A stretch of DNA of 64,000 bases from sequence record PX104379.1; one strand, written 5' to 3'. The notes below the pieces were generated by a model. That model was not told where the DNA came from and did not search any database. It saw only the letters and a program-made list of their open reading frames with translations. Positions 51,619-60,650 of this stretch are shown piece after piece. This DNA comes from a phage. The position numbers and the translations under genes are program-made. The stretch's first letter is position 1. Every line of letters begins with the position of its first letter.

Positions 51619-54600
51619 ATGGCCGAGATTAAAAGAAAGTTCAGAGCAGAAGACGGTCTGGACGCAGGTGGTGATAAAATAATCAACGTAGCTTTAGCTG
51701 ATCGTACCGTAGGAACTGACGGTGTTAACGTTGATTACTTAATTCAAGAAAACACAGTTCAACAATACGATCCAACTCGTGGATATTTAAAAGATTTTGT
51801 AATCATTTATGATAACCGCTTTTGGGCTGCTATAAATGATATTCCAAAACCGGCAGGAGCTTTTAATAGCGGACGCTGGAGAGCATTACGTACCGATGCT
51901 AACTGGATTACGGTTTCATCTGGTTCATATCAATTAAAATCTGGTGAAGCTATTTCAGTTAACACCGCAGCTGGTAATGATATTACATTTACTTTACCAT
52001 CTACCCCAATTGATGGTGATACTATCGTTCTCCAAGATATTGGAGGAAAACCTGGAGTTAACCAAGTTTTAATTGTAGCTCCGGTGCAAAGTATTGTAAA
52101 CTTCAGAGGTCAACAAGTACGTTCAGTACTAATGACTCATCCAAAGTCACAGCTAGTTTTAATTTTTAGTAATCGTCTGTGGCAAATGTATGTTGCTGAT
52201 TATAGCAGAGAAGCTGTAGTTGTAACACCAGCGAATACTTATCAAGCACAATCAAACGATTTTATCGTACGTAGATTTACTTCTGCTGCACCAATTAATG
52301 TTAAACTTCCAAGATTTGCTAATCATGGCGATATTATTAATTTCGTTGATTTAGATAAACTGAATCCACTTTATCATACAATTGTTACTACATACGATGA
52401 AACGACTTCAGTGCAAGAAGTTGGAACTCATTCCATTGAAGGCCGTACATCGATTGACGGTTTCTTGATGTTTGATGATAATGAGAAATTGTGGAGATTG
52501 TTTGACGGGGATAGTAAAGCACGTTTACGCATTATAACGACTAATTCTAATATTCGTCCAAACGAAGAAGTTATGGTATTTGGTGCGAATAACGGAACAA
52601 CCCAAACAATTGAGCTTCAGCTTCCTACTAATATCTCCGTTGGTGATACTGTTAAAATTTCCATGAATTACATGAGAAAAGGACAAACAGTTAAAATCAA
52701 AGCTGCCGGTGAAGATAAAATTGCTTCTTCAGTTCAATTGCTGCAATTCCCAAAACGTTCAGAATATCCACCTGAAACTAAATGGGTAACTGTTCAAGAA
52801 TTAGTTTTTAACGGTGAAACTAATTATGTTCCAGTTTTACAGCTTGCTTATATAGAAGATTCTGATGGAAAATACTGGGTTGTACAGCAAAACGTTCCAA
52901 CTGTAGAAAGAGTAGATTCTTTAAATGATTCTACTAGAGCAAGATTAGGCGTAATTGCTTTAGCTACACAGGCTCAAGCTAACGTCGATTTAGAAAATTC
53001 TCCACAAAAAGAATTAGCAATTACTCCAGAAACATTAGCTAACCGTACTGCTACTGAAACTCGCAGAGGTATTGCAAGAATAGCAACTACTGCTCAAGTG
53101 AATCAGAACACTACATTCTCTTTTGCTGATGATATTATCATCACTCCTAAAAAGCTGAATGAAAGAACTGCTACAGAAACTCGCAGAGGTGTTGCTGAAA
53201 TTGCTACGCAGCAAGAAACTAATGCAGGAACCGATGATACTACAATCATTACTCCTAAAAAGCTTCAAGCTCGTCAAGGTTCTGAATCATTATCTGGTAT
53301 TGTAACTTTTGTATCTACTGCAGGTGCTACTCCAGCTTCTAGCCGTGAATTAAATGGTACGAATGTTTATAATAAAAACACTAATAACTTAGTTGTTTCA
53401 CCCAAAGCTTTGGATCAGTATAAAGCTACTCCAACGCAACAAGGTGCAGTAATTTTAGCAGTTGAAAGTGAAGTAATTGCTGGACAGAGTCAAGAAGGAT
53501 GGGCAAATGCTGTTGTAACGCCAGAAACGTTACACAAAAAGACATCAACTGATGGAAGAATTGGTTTAATTGAAATTGCTACGCAAAGTGAAGTTAATAC
53601 AGGAACTGATTATACTCGTGCAGTCACTCCTAAAACTTTAAATGACCGTAGAGCAACTGAAAGTTTAAGTGGTATAGCTGAAATTGCTACGCAAGTTGAA
53701 TTCGACGCAGGCGTCGACGATACTCGTATCTCTACACCATTAAAAATTAAAACCAGATTTAATAGTACTGATCGTACTTCTGTTGTTGCTCTATCTGGAT
53801 TAGTTGAATCAGGAACTCTCTGGGACCATTATACCCTTAATATTCTTGAAGCAAATGAGACACAACGTGGTACACTTCGTGTAGCTACACAAGTTGAAGC
53901 TGCTGCAGGAACATTAGATAATGTTTTAATAACTCCTAAAAAGCTTTTAGGTACTAAATCTACCGAAGCACAAGAAGGTGTTATTAAAGTTGCAACTCAG
54001 TCTGAAACTGTGGCTGGAACGTCAGCGAACACCGCTGTATCTCCAAAAAATTTAAAATGGATTGTGCAGAGTGAACCTACCTGGGCAGCTACTACTGCGA
54101 TAAGAGGTTTTGTTAAAACTTCATCCGGTTCAATTACATTCGTTGGTAATGATACAGTCGGTTCTACCCAAGATTTAGAACTGTATGAGAAAAATAGCTA
54201 TGCAGTATCACCATATGAATTAAACCGTGTATTAGCAAATTATTTACCGTTAAAAGCAAAAGCTGCTGATACAAATTTATTGGATGGTCTAGATTCATCT
54301 CAGTTCATTCGTAGGGATATTGCACAGACGGTTAATGGTTCACTAACCTTAACCCAACAAACGAATCTGAGTGCCCCTCTTGTATCATCTAGTACTGCTA
54401 CGTTTGGTGGATCAGTTTCGGCAAATAGTACATTAACTATTTCTAATACTGGAACGGCAACTCGTCTGATTTTTGAGAAAGGACCTCAAACTGGAACTAA
54501 CCCAGCACAGACGATGACTATCAGAGTTTGGGGAAATCAGTTTAGTGGCGGATCAGATACAACGCGTTCTACTGTATTTGAAGTTGGTGATGAAACATCT

Positions 54601-55488
54601 AATCACTTTTATTCTCAACGTAATAAAGCTGGTAATATAACGTTTAGTATCAATGGTACTGTAATGCCAATAAACATTAATGCTTCGGGTTCTTTAAATG
54701 CGAATGGCGTTGCAACATTTGGTAGTTCAGTTACTGCTAATGGCGAATTCATCAGCAAGTCTGCAAATGCTTTTAGAGCAATTAGTGGTGATTACGGATT
54801 CTTTATTCGCAATGATGCTGCTAATACCTATTTTATGCTCACTGCATCCGGTGATCAGACTGGCGGATTTAATGGATTACGTCCTTTGTCTATTAATAAT
54901 GCATCTGGCCAAGTAACGATTGGTGAAAGCTTAATCATTGCCAAAGGTGCTACTATAAATTCAGGTGGTTTGACTGTTAACTCGAGAATTCGTTCTCAAG
55001 GTACTAAAACATCTGACTTATATACACGTGCGCCAACATCTGATACTGTAGGATTCTGGTCAATTGATATTAATGATTCAGCTACTTATAACCAGTTCCC
55101 GGGTTATTTTAAAATGGTTGAAAAAACTAATGAAGTGACTGGACTTCCGTACTTAGAACGTGGCGAAGAAGTTAAATCTCCTGGTACACTGACACAGTTT
55201 GGTAACACACTTGATTCGCTTTACCAAGATTGGATTACTTATCCAACGACACCAGAAGCGCGTACCACTCGCTGGACACGTACATGGCAGAAAACCAAAA
55301 ACTCTTGGTCAAGTTTTGTTCAGGTATTTGACGGAGGTAACCCTCCTCAACCATCTGATATCGGTGCTTTACCATCTGATAATGCTACAATGGGGAATCT
55401 TACTATTCGTGATTTCTTACGAATTGGTAATGTTCGCATTATTCCTGACCCAGTGAATAAAACTGTTAAATTTGAATGGGTTGAATAA
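51619..55488 (+). CDS. 34: Long tail fibre proximal subunit gp34
   Basis: 1289 aa; internal approx 40-aa repeats; late promoter upstream. Confidence 0.95.
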   Translation: MAEIKRKFRAEDGLDAGGDKIINVALADRTVGTDGVNVDYLIQENTVQQYDPTRGYLKDFVIIYDNRFWAAINDIPKPAGAFNSGRWRALRTDANWITVSSGSYQLKSGEAISVNTAAGNDITFTLPSTPIDGDTIVLQDIGGKPGVNQVLIVAPVQSIVNFRGQQVRSVLMTHPKSQLVLIFSNRLWQMYVADYSREAVVVTPANTYQAQSNDFIVRRFTSAAPINVKLPRFANHGDIINFVDLDKLNPLYHTIVTTYDETTSVQEVGTHSIEGRTSIDGFLMFDDNEKLWRLFDGDSKARLRIITTNSNIRPNEEVMVFGANNGTTQTIELQLPTNISVGDTVKISMNYMRKGQTVKIKAAGEDKIASSVQLLQFPKRSEYPPETKWVTVQELVFNGETNYVPVLQLAYIEDSDGKYWVVQQNVPTVERVDSLNDSTRARLGVIALATQAQANVDLENSPQKELAITPETLANRTATETRRGIARIATTAQVNQNTTFSFADDIIITPKKLNERTATETRRGVAEIATQQETNAGTDDTTIITPKKLQARQGSESLSGIVTFVSTAGATPASSRELNGTNVYNKNTNNLVVSPKALDQYKATPTQQGAVILAVESEVIAGQSQEGWANAVVTPETLHKKTSTDGRIGLIEIATQSEVNTGTDYTRAVTPKTLNDRRATESLSGIAEIATQVEFDAGVDDTRISTPLKIKTRFNSTDRTSVVALSGLVESGTLWDHYTLNILEANETQRGTLRVATQVEAAAGTLDNVLITPKKLLGTKSTEAQEGVIKVATQSETVAGTSANTAVSPKNLKWIVQSEPTWAATTAIRGFVKTSSGSITFVGNDTVGSTQDLELYEKNSYAVSPYELNRVLANYLPLKAKAADTNLLDGLDSSQFIRRDIAQTVNGSLTLTQQTNLSAPLVSSSTATFGGSVSANSTLTISNTGTATRLIFEKGPQTGTNPAQTMTIRVWGNQFSGGSDTTRSTVFEVGDETSNHFYSQRNKAGNITFSINGTVMPININASGSLNANGVATFGSSVTANGEFISKSANAFRAISGDYGFFIRNDAANTYFMLTASGDQTGGFNGLRPLSINNASGQVTIGESLIIAKGATINSGGLTVNSRIRSQGTKTSDLYTRAPTSDTVGFWSIDINDSATYNQFPGYFKMVEKTNEVTGLPYLERGEEVKSPGTLTQFGNTLDSLYQDWITYPTTPEARTTRWTRTWQKTKNSWSSFVQVFDGGNPPQPSDIGALPSDNATMGNLTIRDFLRIGNVRIIPDPVNKTVKFEWVE

Positions 55489-56674: not shown

Positions 56675-57340
56675 ATGGCTGATTTAAAAGTAGGTTCAAC
56701 AACCGGAGGCTCTGTCATTTGGCATCAAGGAAATTTTCCATTGAATCCAGCTGGTGACGATGTACTCTATAAATCATTTAAAATATATTCAGAATATAAT
56801 AAACCGCAGGCAGCTGATAACGATTTCGTTTCTAAAGCTAATGGTGGTACTTATGCATCAAAGGTAACATTTAACGGCGGCGTCCAAGTCCCGTATGCTG
56901 TAAACAACACAAACCCATGCGGTATTTATCCAGGTAACGGTGATAATGCTACTTTTGCTGTAGCAAATATTGATATTGTTTCGTGGAATGGTATTGGTTT
57001 TAAATCATCGCAAGGTTCAGCAGCTCGAACTGTTGTAATTAATGCACGTAATGGTGATATTAACACAAAAGGTGTTGTGTCTGCGGCAGGTCAAGTAAGA
57101 AGTGATGCAGCTGCTCCTATAGCAGCGAATGACCTTACTAGAAAGGACTATGTTGATGAAGCAATAAATACTGTTACAGCAAATGCGAACTCTAGAGTGT
57201 TGCGTTCTGGCGACACTATGATAGGTAATTTAACCGCGCCAAACTTTTTCTCACAGAATCCTGCGTCTCAACCTTCACATGTTCCACGATTTGATCAAAT
57301 CGTAATTAAGGATTCTGTTCAAGATTTCGGCTATTATTAA
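56675..57340 (+). CDS. 36: Long tail fibre proximal connector gp36
   Basis: 221 aa, position and size match. Confidence 0.9.
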
Positions 57341-57348
57341 GAGGACTT

Positions 57349-60300
57349 ATGGCTACTTTAAAACAAATACAATTTAAAAGAAGCAAAACTGCAGGTCAAC
57401 GTCCTGCTGCTTCAGTATTAGCCGAAGGTGAATTGGCTATAAACTTAAAAGACCGTACTCTTTTTACTAAAGATGACTCGGGAAATATTATTGATTTAAG
57501 CATTTCTGCCGGTGGTAACATTAGTGGAAATATCACTCAAACTGGTGATTATTTACAAAACGGCACGTATAATCTTAATGGAAATCAGTTTGTTTACGCA
57601 GGAAAGTATATTGAATTCTTGCCAAAAACTGCTGGAAATGGTGCTTGGGCAAATCAGCACACAAATAAAGCTCCAATTTTCACCGATCTGAGTTCAACTA
57701 CTTCTATTTCAGAATATCATCCACTCATTAAGCAACGCTATAAAGATGGAACTTTTTCAGCGGGTACATTGGTTGCTGAAGGCAGTTTTAAGTTCCATTA
57801 TATTGATGAAACTGGGACTTCAAAATACTGGACGTTTCGCCGTGACGGTGGATTTACTGTTGACAATGGAGGTTTAGCAGTATCAGGAGGTAGTATAACT
57901 ACAACTGGAAATATTGCAGCTATTGGAAATATTACTTCACCTCAAATTAATACTAAAAATATTATTTTAGATACAAAAGCATTTGGACAATACGATTCGC
58001 AATCATTAGTTCAATATGTTTATCCTGGAACAGGTGAAGAAAATGGTATAAACTATCTTCGTAAAGTTCGAGCTAAATCAGGCGGAACTATTTACCATGA
58101 AATCGCTTCAGCTCAAACTGGTAAGAATGATGAAATTTCTTGGTGGACCGGAAATACACTTACTATTAAATTAATGGGTCTTCGTAATGATGGCGCAATG
58201 GTATTACGTCGTTCACTTGCTATTGGCACAATTACCACTGACGAAAATACTAACAACTATGGTTCTCCTACTCCAATGGGAGAAAGATATATTGCTTTGG
58301 GCGATGCTGCCACTGGTTTAAAATACATTAAGCAGGGCGTTTATGATTTAGTAGGTAATTGGAATTCTGTTGCGTCTATTACTCCTGATAGTTTCCGTAG
58401 TACTCGTAAAGCGATATTTGGACGTTCAGAAGACCAAGGTGGAACATGGATTATGCCTGGAACTAACGCTGCGCTTTTATCAGTTCAAACTCAAGCTGAT
58501 GGAAACTCCGCTGGTGATGGTCAAACACACATTGGATATAATTCTGGTGGTAAAATGAACCACTATTTTCGTGGTACAGGTCAGATGAATATCAATACCC
58601 AACAGGGTATGGAAATTAATCCAGGAGTGTTAAAATTAACCACTGGGGCAAATAATGTAATGTTATACGCGGACGGCGGTATTACATCTGTTAAGCAGCT
58701 TTCAATATACAATGGGGTGTATTTAGCAGCTAATAACTCGACCGCTGGATTAACATTCGCTCCAACTACTACAATTGATGGCACTAAGCAAATTTTGTGG
58801 GAAGGCGGTACTCGTGCTGGTCAGAATAAAAGCTATGTAACTGTTAAAGCATGGGGTAATTCATTTAACGCATCTGGCGATCGTAATCGTGAAACGGTTT
58901 TTGAAGTAGCTGATGGACAAGGATATTATTTTTATTCACAGCGTGTGGCTCCAAGTGGCTCTGAAACTACTGGGCCTGTTGTAACCCAGTTCAATGGACA
59001 AGTTAATGCTAGAGGAAGTATTATTACTGACGGAAGTTTTAAAGTTAATGGATTAAGCACTTTAGTCGGTAATGTTACTATGTCTAATGGTTTGTTTGTC
59101 CAAGGTGGTTCTTCTATTACTGGACAGGTAAAAATTGGTGGAACGGCTGATGCATTAAGAATTTGGAATGCTGAATACGGTGCTATTTTCCGCCGTTCAG
59201 AAGCGTCATTACATATTATCCCTACTCCTAAAGATGCCGGTGAAAGCGGTGGAATAAGTAATCTCCGCCCACTTAGTATTAGCCTTAATAATGGTATGGT
59301 GCAAATGCGTCATTCCGTTACATTAGGTGATGATGGTGCAGGCGGTAATATGGTGACGGTTGATAATGATTCTAAAGTTATGGTAATGACGACTAATAGC
59401 CGTATTAGTCCTAACTTCCGTATGCAAATTGGACAGTCGTCTTATATTGATGTGGAATGTACTGATGCTGTGAGACCTGCTGGAGCCGGTTCTTTTGCTT
59501 CACAGAATAACGAAAACGTTCGCGCTCCGTTCTATATGAATATTGATAGAACAGATACAAGCACTTATGTTCCTATTGTGAAACAAAGATACGTTCAAAA
59601 TAATAGTTGCTATTCTATTGGTACTTTAATTAATGGTGGTAACTTTAGAGTTCATTATCATGAAGGCGGTGACGGCGTTTCTACTGGTGCTATTATAAAG
59701 GATCTTGGATGGGAATTTAATAAAAACGGTGATTTTTATTCTCCTGGTAAATTAGGCGCTGGAAATATTAGAATAGGTACTGATGGTAATATTACTGGCG
59801 GAACTGGTAACTTTGCTAACTTGAACACAACTATCGAATCATTAAAAACCGATATTGTTTCAAGTTATCCTATTGGAGCTCCTATTCCATGGCCTACAGA
59901 TACTCCTCCTAATGGTTACGCTATTATGGAAGGACAGACTTTTGATAAGTCTGCATACCCAAAATTGGCTATAGCTTACCCATCTGGAGTAATTCCTGAT
60001 ATGCGCGGGCAAACTATCAAAGGTAAACCAAGCGGTCGTGCTGTGTTAAGTGCAGAAGCTGATGGTGTTAAGGCTCATAACCATAGTGCTTCAGCATCTA
60101 ATACTGATTTAGGTACTAAAACTACATCAAGCTTTGATTATGGCACTAAGACGACAAGTAGCTTTGACTATGGCACTAAGACTAGCAATACCACAGGTAA
60201 CCACTCTCATACTGTAAGCGGTACTACGAGTTCTGCTGGTGCACACCAACATGCGCGCTCAGGTCCTCAGATACAAGCCGGCATACCCAATAACATATTC

Positions 60301-60621
60301 TATGACGGATATAATAGTGTAGGTGCAAACGCCAACGCTAAATTCACTGGAACCGTGAACGGTGCTACTGCAGGGTCGAATATAGCCAAAACTTCTTCAG
60401 ACGGTGCTCATACTCATACTTGGTCCGGTACTACAAGCACTACAGGTAACCATGCTCACACAGTAGGTATTGGTGCTCATACCCATACTGTAGGTATCGG
60501 TGCTCATACCCACACGGTAGCAATTGGCTCGCATGGTCATACTATCACTGTAAATAGTACAGGTAATACAGAAAACACGGTTAAAAACATTGCTTTTAAC
60601 TATATCGTTCGTTTAGCATAA
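57349..60621 (+). CDS. 37: Long tail fibre distal subunit gp37 (receptor-recognising), mosaic variant
   Basis: 1090 aa; T4-like N-terminus [23 protein letters not shown] and C-terminus ..[45 protein letters not shown] with HxH boxes. Confidence 0.92.
60112..60201 (+). repeat. 30-bp tandem repeat (about 2.3 copies) inside gene 37
   Basis: ggtactaaaactacatcaagctttgattat / ggcactaagacgacaagtagctttgactat / partial third; encodes [10 protein letters not shown] twice. Confidence 0.75.
60455..60540 (+). repeat. 27-bp His-box tandem repeats inside gene 37
   Basis: Three imperfect units encoding HTVGIGAHT / HTVGIGAHT / HTVAIGSHG. Confidence 0.7.
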
Positions 60622-60628
60622 GGAGAGA

Positions 60629-60646
60629 GGGGCTTCGGCCCCTTCT
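60629..60646 (+). terminator. Hairpin between gene 37 and gene 38
   Basis: GGGGC-TTCG-GCCCC followed by TTCTAAAT; weak U tract. Confidence 0.5.
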
Positions 60647-60650
60647 AAAT

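Follow-up and report, generated by a model that had tools for sequence, protein, structure and literature searches.

In the T2/T6 class of T-even phages, gp38 is a protein of about 260 amino acids (aa) marked by glycine-rich motifs as well as hypervariable loops, and the C-terminus of gp37 lacks an HxH needle. In T4, gp57 is needed besides gp38 for folding of the fiber. A model of recombination at conserved motifs is said to go back to Tetart et al. in 1998; laboratory-selected T4 duplications of a small domain bounded by His boxes were reportedly described by Tetart et al. in 1996; and the TuIb tip sequence, said to be the first of its variant, is attributed to Montag, Hashemolhosseini and Henning in 1990.

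The needle at the tip of T4 gp37 has seven HxH boxes, with seven iron atoms along its length (PMC6957217). At the head the chain turns round, so that the needle has six strands, and the number of HxH motifs possibly scales with needle length (PMC12609058). Side tail fiber (Stf) tips, which rely on Tfa-type chaperones and not on T4 gp38, belong to what has been called the "T4- and lambda-based RBP family" (PMC9659904).

The stretch of DNA analyzed here (the window) comprises 64,000 nucleotides of phage sequence record PX104379.1, and the features of its gene 37 region are collected in Table 1. The open reading frame encodes a gp37 of 1090 aa followed by a stop codon, against 1026 aa in T4. It lies between gp36 (Pfam Phage_T4_gp36) and gp38 in the late operon g34-g35-g36-g37-g38-t, which has the same gene order in the window, in T4 and in Bas42. 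The flanking proteins are close to those of T4 (gp34, 96.0%; gp35, 98.1%; gp36, 91.4%; gp38, 99.5%; holin t, 97.2% identity), and the C(UUCG)G hairpin between gp37 and gp38 is also present in T4, TuIb and Bas42. The protein is the distal half-fiber of a Tequatrovirus long tail fiber of the T4/TuIb class, as seen from its place in the operon, its N-terminus (47/50 residues identical to T4 and 49/50 to Bas42), the homology of its tip, its HxH series and the adjacent 183-aa gp38. In this class, the C-terminus of gp37 itself is the adhesin, with gp38 acting as a folding chaperone only. A gp37 of the T2/T6 class, with a cleaved C-terminus and gp38 as an adhesin cap, is ruled out, since a T4 chaperone lies downstream and an HxH needle is present; likeness to T2 is confined to the N-proximal shaft segment. 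Taken as a whole, it is highly probable that this is a mosaic gp37 of the T4/TuIb class with a paired-rung tip, receptor choice residing in the head and OmpC as its likely receptor.

Table 1. Features of the gene 37 region, in positions of the window.
Feature	Position	Strand	Basis
Gene 37, distal long tail fiber subunit with C-terminal adhesin	57349..60621	+	Open reading frame; likeness to Bas42
Conserved N-terminal 50 aa	57349..57498	+	47/50 vs T4
Variable N-proximal shaft, aa 51-205, T2-like, not T4-like	57499..57963	+	DNA and aa comparison
Shaft with moderate divergence from T4, aa 206-812; 11 aa inserted at aa 651-680	57964..59784	+	Alignment
Collar domain region, aa 813-909	59785..60075	+	Pfam PF07484 Collar, aa 843-890, E = 2.7e-11; aligns to 2XGF
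HxH box 1 (HNH, aa 910-912), base of outgoing strand	60076..60084	+	Matches T4 H883/H885
Outgoing spacer, four 10-aa units, 39 aa between boxes 1 and 2	60085..60201	+	
HxH boxes 2 (HSH, aa 952-954) and 3 (HQH, aa 966-968), 14 aa apart	60202..60252	+	
Head insert, aa 969-1020, presumed receptor-contacting tip, TuIb-type	60253..60408	+	Not alignable to T4 head
Returning strand, boxes 4 (aa 1021), 5 (1035) and 6-8 (1044, 1053, 1062)	60409..60540	+	
C-terminal tail and stop codon	60541..60621	+	DNA 100% identical to T4
C(UUCG)G tetraloop hairpin, gp37-gp38 spacer	60628..60643	+	Fold energy -16.5 kcal/mol, z = -2.9
Gene 38, T4-type tail-fiber assembly chaperone, 183 aa	60651..61202	+	182/183 identical to T4 gp38

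The preliminary description had pictured a protein longer than that of T4, with T4-like ends, divergent internal and tip-proximal segments and a T4-type gp38. All of this is borne out by the alignment with T4, which shows an overall identity of 62-67% (depending on the denominator) and no near-identity throughout. The first 50 aa, presumably the part that attaches to gp36, are followed by a segment (aa 51-205) with only 23.5% identity and 30 gap columns. Identity then rises to 70.5% over aa 206-650, falls to 26% around the insertion at aa 651-680, and recovers to 74% over aa 681-812 and 89% over aa 813-921. It drops again to 38.6%, with 32 gap columns, over aa 942-1043 (25% in the head, aa 967-1020), and aa 1044-1090 are nearly those of T4 (45/47; 40/40 over the final 40 aa). 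Part of the shaft (aa 466-659) has matches to the gp34 rod as well, in structures 5NXH and 4UXE (E about 3e-11).

At the DNA level, the gene is 89-98% identical to T4 as far as about 57484 and less so beyond, whereas from about 60487 on the sequence is nearly identical to T4. Both changes are sharp; one lies at about 57485, the other at about 60487 within the His-box repeats. For the DNA of aa 51-205, the best matches were Bas42 (89.3%) and T2 gene 37 (about 78.6%), and T4 was absent among the matches listed. Gene 37 is a recombinational mosaic relative to T4. It joins a conserved N-terminus to a T2-like N-proximal shaft, followed by shaft sequence of moderate divergence and then the TuIb-type tip, with T4-like DNA resuming inside the last His-box repeats and running on through gp38 and the holin gene. 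A junction inside the His-box repeats agrees with the model of recombination at conserved motifs reportedly proposed by Tetart et al.

The closest known relative is Bas42 (Escherichia phage AndreasVesalius, MZ501050), whose gp37 (QXV75937.1) has the same 1090 aa with 98% aa and 95.9% nucleotide identity, the same repeats and the same adjacent T4-type gp38. Its tip DNA is 99.6% identical, that of the N-proximal variable segment only 89.3%; the differences, about 20 aa in all, fall mainly in aa 150-200 and aa 350-450, and one head residue is G here and in TuIb but W in Bas42. TuIb gp37 (X55191), a record that covers the last 267 aa only, is identical at 259 of these (97%) in a gapless alignment; it has the same repeat numbers, eight HxH boxes and a head insert that differs by three substitutions only, and is likewise followed by gp38 and t. 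The tip DNA is also 98.2-98.4% identical to that of Bas40, Bas41 and about 15 other phages, and the tip occurs at ≥95% identity in about 30 database phage records. (The word-indexed protein search yielded mostly prophage fibers and partial calls rather than complete phage gp37 proteins; close relatives were more readily found in the phage DNA collection.) A gene 37 with a TuIb-type tip is thus already known, real but ordinary.

T4 gp37 (NP_049863; 2XGF) occupies the same locus and shares the N-terminal 50 aa, the collar, the HxH needle architecture, the C-terminal 40 aa and the gp38 chaperone, as well as, by inference here, OmpC as the protein receptor. It is 64 aa shorter, with an unrelated N-proximal segment and a different, shorter head insert. 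Side tail fiber tips of lambdoid and other enterobacterial prophages (Ur-lambda Stf family) have a collar, an HxH needle, a head and a similar C-terminus, at 55-70% identity, on short fibers (230-500 aa) with unrelated N-terminal parts.

The tip (aa 813-1090) is homologous to the T4 tip in 2XGF (phmmer E = 1.3e-94). Its eight HxH boxes begin at aa 910, 952, 966, 1021, 1035, 1044, 1053 and 1062, and boxes 6, 7 and 8 of the returning strand are spaced at 9 aa. Two tandem repeats are found in this region. The first, detected by Tandem Repeats Finder at 60115-60184 (2.3 copies), consists in codon register of two 30-bp units at 60112-60141 and 60142-60171 that encode the same 10-aa peptide, as had been described, plus a degenerate third unit at 60172-60201. 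The second, detected at 60457-60520 (2.4 copies), had been described as three 27-bp units at 60455-60540; this was approximately right in extent, but in register there are four boxes with 9-aa spacing, starting at 60451 (60451, HAHTVGIGA; 60478, HTHTVGIGA; 60505, HTHTVAIGS; 60532, HGHTITVNS). An AlphaFold2 monomer model of aa 813-1090, made from a 70-sequence alignment, had a mean pLDDT of 52.8 and a pTM of 0.21, values too low to be of use for an intertwined metal-bound trimer.

The repeat copies are old, since the two 30-bp units are identical at only 23/30 nucleotides but at 10/10 aa, with all seven differences synonymous, including a TCA/AGT serine codon switch; the 27-bp units are identical at 22/27 nucleotides. 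Although 27-30 bp tandem repeats may be mis-assembled when reads are short, a sequencing or assembly artifact, or very recent replication slippage, can be rejected, given copies only 77-81% identical in nucleotides with a conserved peptide and an intact reading frame, and the same repeat structure in TuIb (X55191), Bas42 and about 30 independently assembled phage records.

How, then, do these repeats relate to T4? The preliminary description had placed them in a divergent receptor region, but T4 gp37 has the same two repeats, each one unit shorter. Box 1 and box 2 are 42 aa apart here and 32 aa apart in T4 (four vs three outgoing units), there are four returning boxes vs three, and eight HxH boxes in total vs seven; boxes 3 and 4 are separated by 55 aa here vs 37 aa in T4. 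Both repeats sit in the stem of the needle, not in the receptor-contacting head. The tip would be a trimeric hairpin needle, in which every chain extends from the collar up to a small head and then returns. The HxH boxes of both strands would point toward the axis and bind metal ions. The 10-aa unit would then be the outgoing half, and the 9-aa HxHTVGIGA unit the returning half, of one structural rung, with four such rungs here and three in T4. With eight boxes rather than seven, the tip is predicted to have eight metal sites and a needle slightly longer than that of T4; the metal binding and the geometry of the extra rung are read here from the sequence and from likeness to T4.

To what extent this pairing holds was seen in a survey of 270 tip sequences, parsed with relaxed regular-expression anchors, which gave 163 distinct needles; seven sequences that were truncated or frameshifted and 23 without an anchor were set aside. 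An outgoing spacer of 10n+2 aa (±1) accompanies n returning HxH boxes spaced at 9 aa in 162 of the 163 distinct needles: spacers of 32, 42, 52, 62 and 73 aa go with 3, 4, 5, 6 and 7 boxes, respectively. The 14-aa steps beside the head are symmetric in all of them (0/0 in 84, 1/1 in 78 and 2/2 in 1). Across the family there are three to seven rungs and four to ten HxH boxes per chain, none of the 163 needles has an unmatched rung, and the Stf-family prophage tips obey the same rule. The four-rung form is found in about half of the family members, including prophage fibers with unrelated heads, and the rung class changed at least eight times on a tree made from the flanking regions. The needle may perhaps be quantized, with rungs gained and lost only as matched pairs, each providing one metal site, a proposal that we hold tentatively and consider rather less probable than its opposite. 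On such a paired-rung reading, the two tandem repeats would be the footprint of a single paired expansion relative to T4. The pairing could also stem in part from inheritance of the whole tip as a block rather than from independent paired insertions and deletions.

Might the extra units instead be adaptive duplications, like those selected in T4 in the laboratory, which widen host range by improving the reach or avidity of receptor binding, and not neutral variation in needle length? Duplications in gene 37 are cited in the literature as changing host range, and a family range of three to seven rungs could adjust how far the fiber reaches through LPS or O-antigen. However, the extra units lie in the stem and not in the head, their copies diverged anciently (7/30 nucleotides and the serine codon switch), four rungs are the fixed number in about half of the family members, among them prophage fibers with unrelated heads, and OmpC is used both by T4 with three rungs and by this allele with four. 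An adaptive origin of this kind is therefore improbable.

Receptor choice would reside in the head insert, and the preliminary description had expected a receptor preference different from that of T4. The head indeed cannot be aligned with that of T4, being 18 aa longer with 25% identity. None of the T4 residues linked to the binding of OmpC or LPS (T939, V941, G943, A955 and others; PMC5221442) could be aligned to this gp37 in the pairwise alignment, and they lack a counterpart in this head. Porin switching is also possible in this tip family, since TuIa, with a related tip, uses OmpF (PMC9659904). On the other hand, phages that carry this same allele are recorded as depending on OmpC: in the BASEL table and text OmpC is the primary receptor of Bas42 and Bas41, the ompC dependence of Bas40 was complemented, and OmpC is listed as the receptor of TuIb (PMC9659904). 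The BASEL authors further state that the T-even phages with the adhesin as a C-terminal extension of gp37 are the OmpC-targeting ones. The expected difference is thus mostly unsupported, and recognition of a receptor other than that of T4, such as OmpF, Tsx, OmpA or an LPS sugar, is quite improbable.

By analogy with these relatives, this phage probably binds OmpC. A narrower difference from T4 is plausible, namely a lack of infection of E. coli B by the LPS route, as in Bas42: T4 can use the B-type LPS core, whereas Bas42 gave lysis of the ompC-deficient E. coli B REL606 in 0/3 experiments. Unlike Bas42, Bas44 (tip DNA 98.4% identical) does plate on E. coli B, at about 1e-3, which suggests that host range is also shaped by small differences or by other genes.

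What does this tell us about the fiber and its family? The mosaic gene is a textbook example of the plasticity of the T-even tail-fiber locus, and none of these findings raises a new biological question. Its value lies in annotation, as the phage is predicted to use OmpC and to require gp38 (and, from T4, gp57) for fiber folding. The sole novelty would be the strict pairing and the arithmetic that goes with it; the out-and-back topology has already been published, and a scaling of HxH number with needle length has been suggested (PMC12609058). If the paired-rung rule is true, needle length would be a trait able to evolve separately from the head, and it might adjust how far the tip reaches through the LPS layer. 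The rule may also be a design constraint for chimeric fiber tips, in which outgoing and returning units would have to be changed together.

In the T4 fiber tip, the gp37 chain extends outward from the collar, makes the head and then turns back, and the resulting needle is a six-stranded barrel with seven iron atoms along its axis, held by seven HxH boxes (PMC6957217, PMC12609058, PMC9659904). The last 278 aa of the window's gp37 match the crystal structure of this tip (2XGF, E = 1.3e-94), with a Pfam Collar domain at aa 843-890. Because the gaps between the boxes differ from those of T4, the outgoing strand is seen to be 10 aa longer and the returning strand to carry one additional HxH unit of 9 aa.

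What do the two tandem repeats of the preliminary description represent? Tandem Repeats Finder recovered both (30-bp array at 60115-60184, 27-bp array at 60457-60520); the table gives their units in codon register. T4 also has the two arrays, each with one unit fewer. Since the pairing of outgoing and returning units is general among needles, the repeats would be the two halves of a single structural rung, made of one 10-aa outgoing and one 9-aa HxH returning unit. By its box spacing, the fiber thus has one predicted rung more than T4 and, presumably, one more putative metal site. (An AlphaFold2 monomer model, with a pLDDT of 52.8, was too poor for rung geometry.) The two 30-bp units that encode identical peptides have diverged at 7 of their 30 nucleotides; the changes are all synonymous and include a TCA/AGT serine codon switch. 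Units 1 and 2 of the 27-bp array have 5 differences in 27 nucleotides. This divergence rules out slippage or an assembly artefact and argues that the copies are old and maintained by selection on the protein.

Features of the tail-fiber locus and of gp37, with T4 gp37 for comparison
Feature	Position	Description
gp34	51619-55488	upstream of gp37
gp35, gp36		upstream of gp37; gp36 has Pfam Phage_T4_gp36
Gene 36 patch	56855-57034	78-83% nt identity to T4; rest of gene 91-98%
gp37	57349-60621 (+)	1090 aa
Shaft segment, aa 466-659	58744-59325	matches gp34 rod domains 5NXH, 4UXE, 9X3R (E ~3e-11)
30-bp unit 1	60112-60141	10-residue peptide
30-bp unit 2	60142-60171	same peptide as unit 1
30-bp unit 3	after 60171	degenerate 10-residue peptide
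27-bp units	starts 60451, 60478, 60505, 60532	four 9-residue units, the last HGHTITVNS
gp37-gp38 hairpin	60622-60650 (core 60628-60643)	C(UUCG)G tetraloop, between gp37 stop and gp38 start
183-aa ORF, holin t, asiA		downstream of gp37
HxH boxes, window	aa 910, 952, 966; past head 1021, 1035, 1044, 1053, 1062	gaps 42, 14, 55 (across head), 14, 9, 9, 9 aa
HxH boxes, T4	aa 883, 915, 929; past head 966, 980, 989, 998	gaps 32, 14, 37 (across head), 14, 9, 9 aa
gp37 segment	aa 1-50	47/50 identical to T4
gp37 segment	aa 51-205	23.5% identity to T4, several indels
gp37 segment	aa 206-650	70.5% identity to T4
gp37 segment	aa 651-680	26% identity to T4, 11-aa insertion
gp37 segment	aa 681-812	74% identity to T4
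gp37 segment (collar)	aa 813-921	89% identity to T4
gp37 segment	aa 942-1043	38.6% identity to T4, 32 gap columns
gp37 segment	aa 1051-1090	40/40 identical to T4

The pairing was examined in 270 tip sequences, namely those of the window, T4 and TuIb, 120 close matches and 147 cluster representatives (50% identity), 240 of which were parsed as intact, yielding 163 distinct needles. With n returning boxes spaced at 9 aa, the outgoing spacer is 10n+2 aa, ±1: 32 aa for three boxes (75 needles), 42 aa, or 41 in two cases, for four (80), 52 aa for five (5), 62 aa for six (1) and 73 aa for seven (1). The sole exception is without inner boxes, yet has three outgoing 10-aa units. The 14-aa steps flanking the head are symmetric in every needle (0/0 in 84, 1/1 in 78 and 2/2 in one). 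A neighbor-joining tree of the flanking collar and C-terminal tail contains at least eight changes of rung class; part of the perfect pairing could be explained by whole-tip recombination.

The window is from a Tequatrovirus, and the gene order around gp37 is that of the T4 late tail-fiber operon. The 25 kb upstream are 96-97.5% identical to many Tequatrovirus phages, none of them identical in the phage collection compared. The gp37 protein is only 62-67% identical overall to its 1026-aa T4 counterpart, and its neighbors are at 96.0% (gp34), 98.1% (gp35), 91.4% (gp36), 99.5% (gp38) and 97.2% (t). Its description as a mosaic with T4-like ends is correct, since the segment identities, the DNA junctions and a match to T2 all bear it out: identity to T4 DNA drops from ~98% to <62% at ~57485, near-identity resumes at ~60487, inside the His-box repeats, and for the divergent N-proximal segment there is a match to T2 gene 37 (78.6% nt), with T4 absent among the matches listed for that segment. 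The dip in gene 36 is possibly another small recombination patch, and the shaft segment reflects internal gp34/gp37 paralogy of the fiber shaft.

The downstream ORF is identical to the T4-type gp38 chaperone at 182 of 183 residues, which rules out a T2/T6-type gp38 adhesin. The hairpin preceding it (dG -16.5 kcal/mol, z = -2.9) is also kept in T4, TuIb and Bas42; in the window, the purine run that precedes it contains an additional GA. On the 5' side of the hairpin, ~25 nt before the ATG, is GGAG, which is like a Shine-Dalgarno sequence; this resembles the known layout at T4 gene 38, where the Shine-Dalgarno sequence and the AUG are brought close by a hairpin.

The closest full-length match is gp37 of the BASEL phage AndreasVesalius (Bas42), of equal length and 95.9% nt and 98% aa identity. 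Across the tip (60100-60545), DNA identity is 99.6% with Bas42 and a Shigella phage, 98.2-98.4% with ~20 Tequatrovirus records (among them Bas40 FelixPlatter and Bas41 FriedrichZschokke) and 97.1% with X55191, the gene 37/38/t fragment of phage TuIb (Montag et al. 1990). TuIb matches the last 267 aa at 259 positions, gap-free, and as it already has the two arrays and the complete head insert, the tip is, by sequence, the TuIb allele, in the literature since 1990. Many database proteins with this tip come from incomplete or fused gene predictions (P0001, P0002, P0016, P0022, P0025, P0053). Two "Shigella" tail fiber proteins, P0001 (113-kb contig) and P0002 (166-kb contig), begin inside gp37, and their contigs are therefore probably T4-like phage contigs inside bacterial assemblies; others in that set are labelled terminase or tape-measure, yet end in the collar-needle tip.

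Does the divergent head imply a different receptor, as was proposed from the sequence? The head insert (aa 969-1020) is not alignable with its T4 counterpart and is without the residues that, in T4, have been implicated in contact with OmpC or LPS. However, relatives with the same tip allele are OmpC-dependent, like T4: for Bas42 and Bas41 the BASEL supplementary table gives OmpC as the primary and the LPS deep core as the secondary receptor, the ompC dependence of Bas40 was genetically complemented (BASEL), and the TuIb receptor is listed as OmpC (OmpC/LamB in PMC9659904). The receptor is thus most likely OmpC, as in T4, and of the earlier interpretation the mosaic and the T4-type chaperone stand while the different receptor does not; the observation itself (gene, mosaic, repeats) is confirmed. 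A narrower difference from T4, in growth on E. coli B, is plausible. T4 can use the LPS core of E. coli B (BASEL), whereas Bas42 failed to lyse the ompC-deficient E. coli B strain REL606 in three experiments. Bas44, whose tip DNA is 98.4% identical, did plate on that strain, at ~1e-3 (both BASEL supplementary file 7), so growth on this host is not set by tip allele class alone.

The plasticity of the T-even tail-fiber locus and its two alternative adhesin designs are established (Trojet et al. 2011), and the window's gp37 is itself already known, as a near-copy of the annotated and phenotyped Bas42 gene with the TuIb tip. The tip family, common to lambda Stf and other prophage fibers, is conserved, with only the short head segment varying (PMC9659904), and scaling of needle length with HxH number has been suggested (PMC12609058). 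Only the strict paired-rung arithmetic was not found stated in the literature searched on these fibers, and it is a modest refinement.
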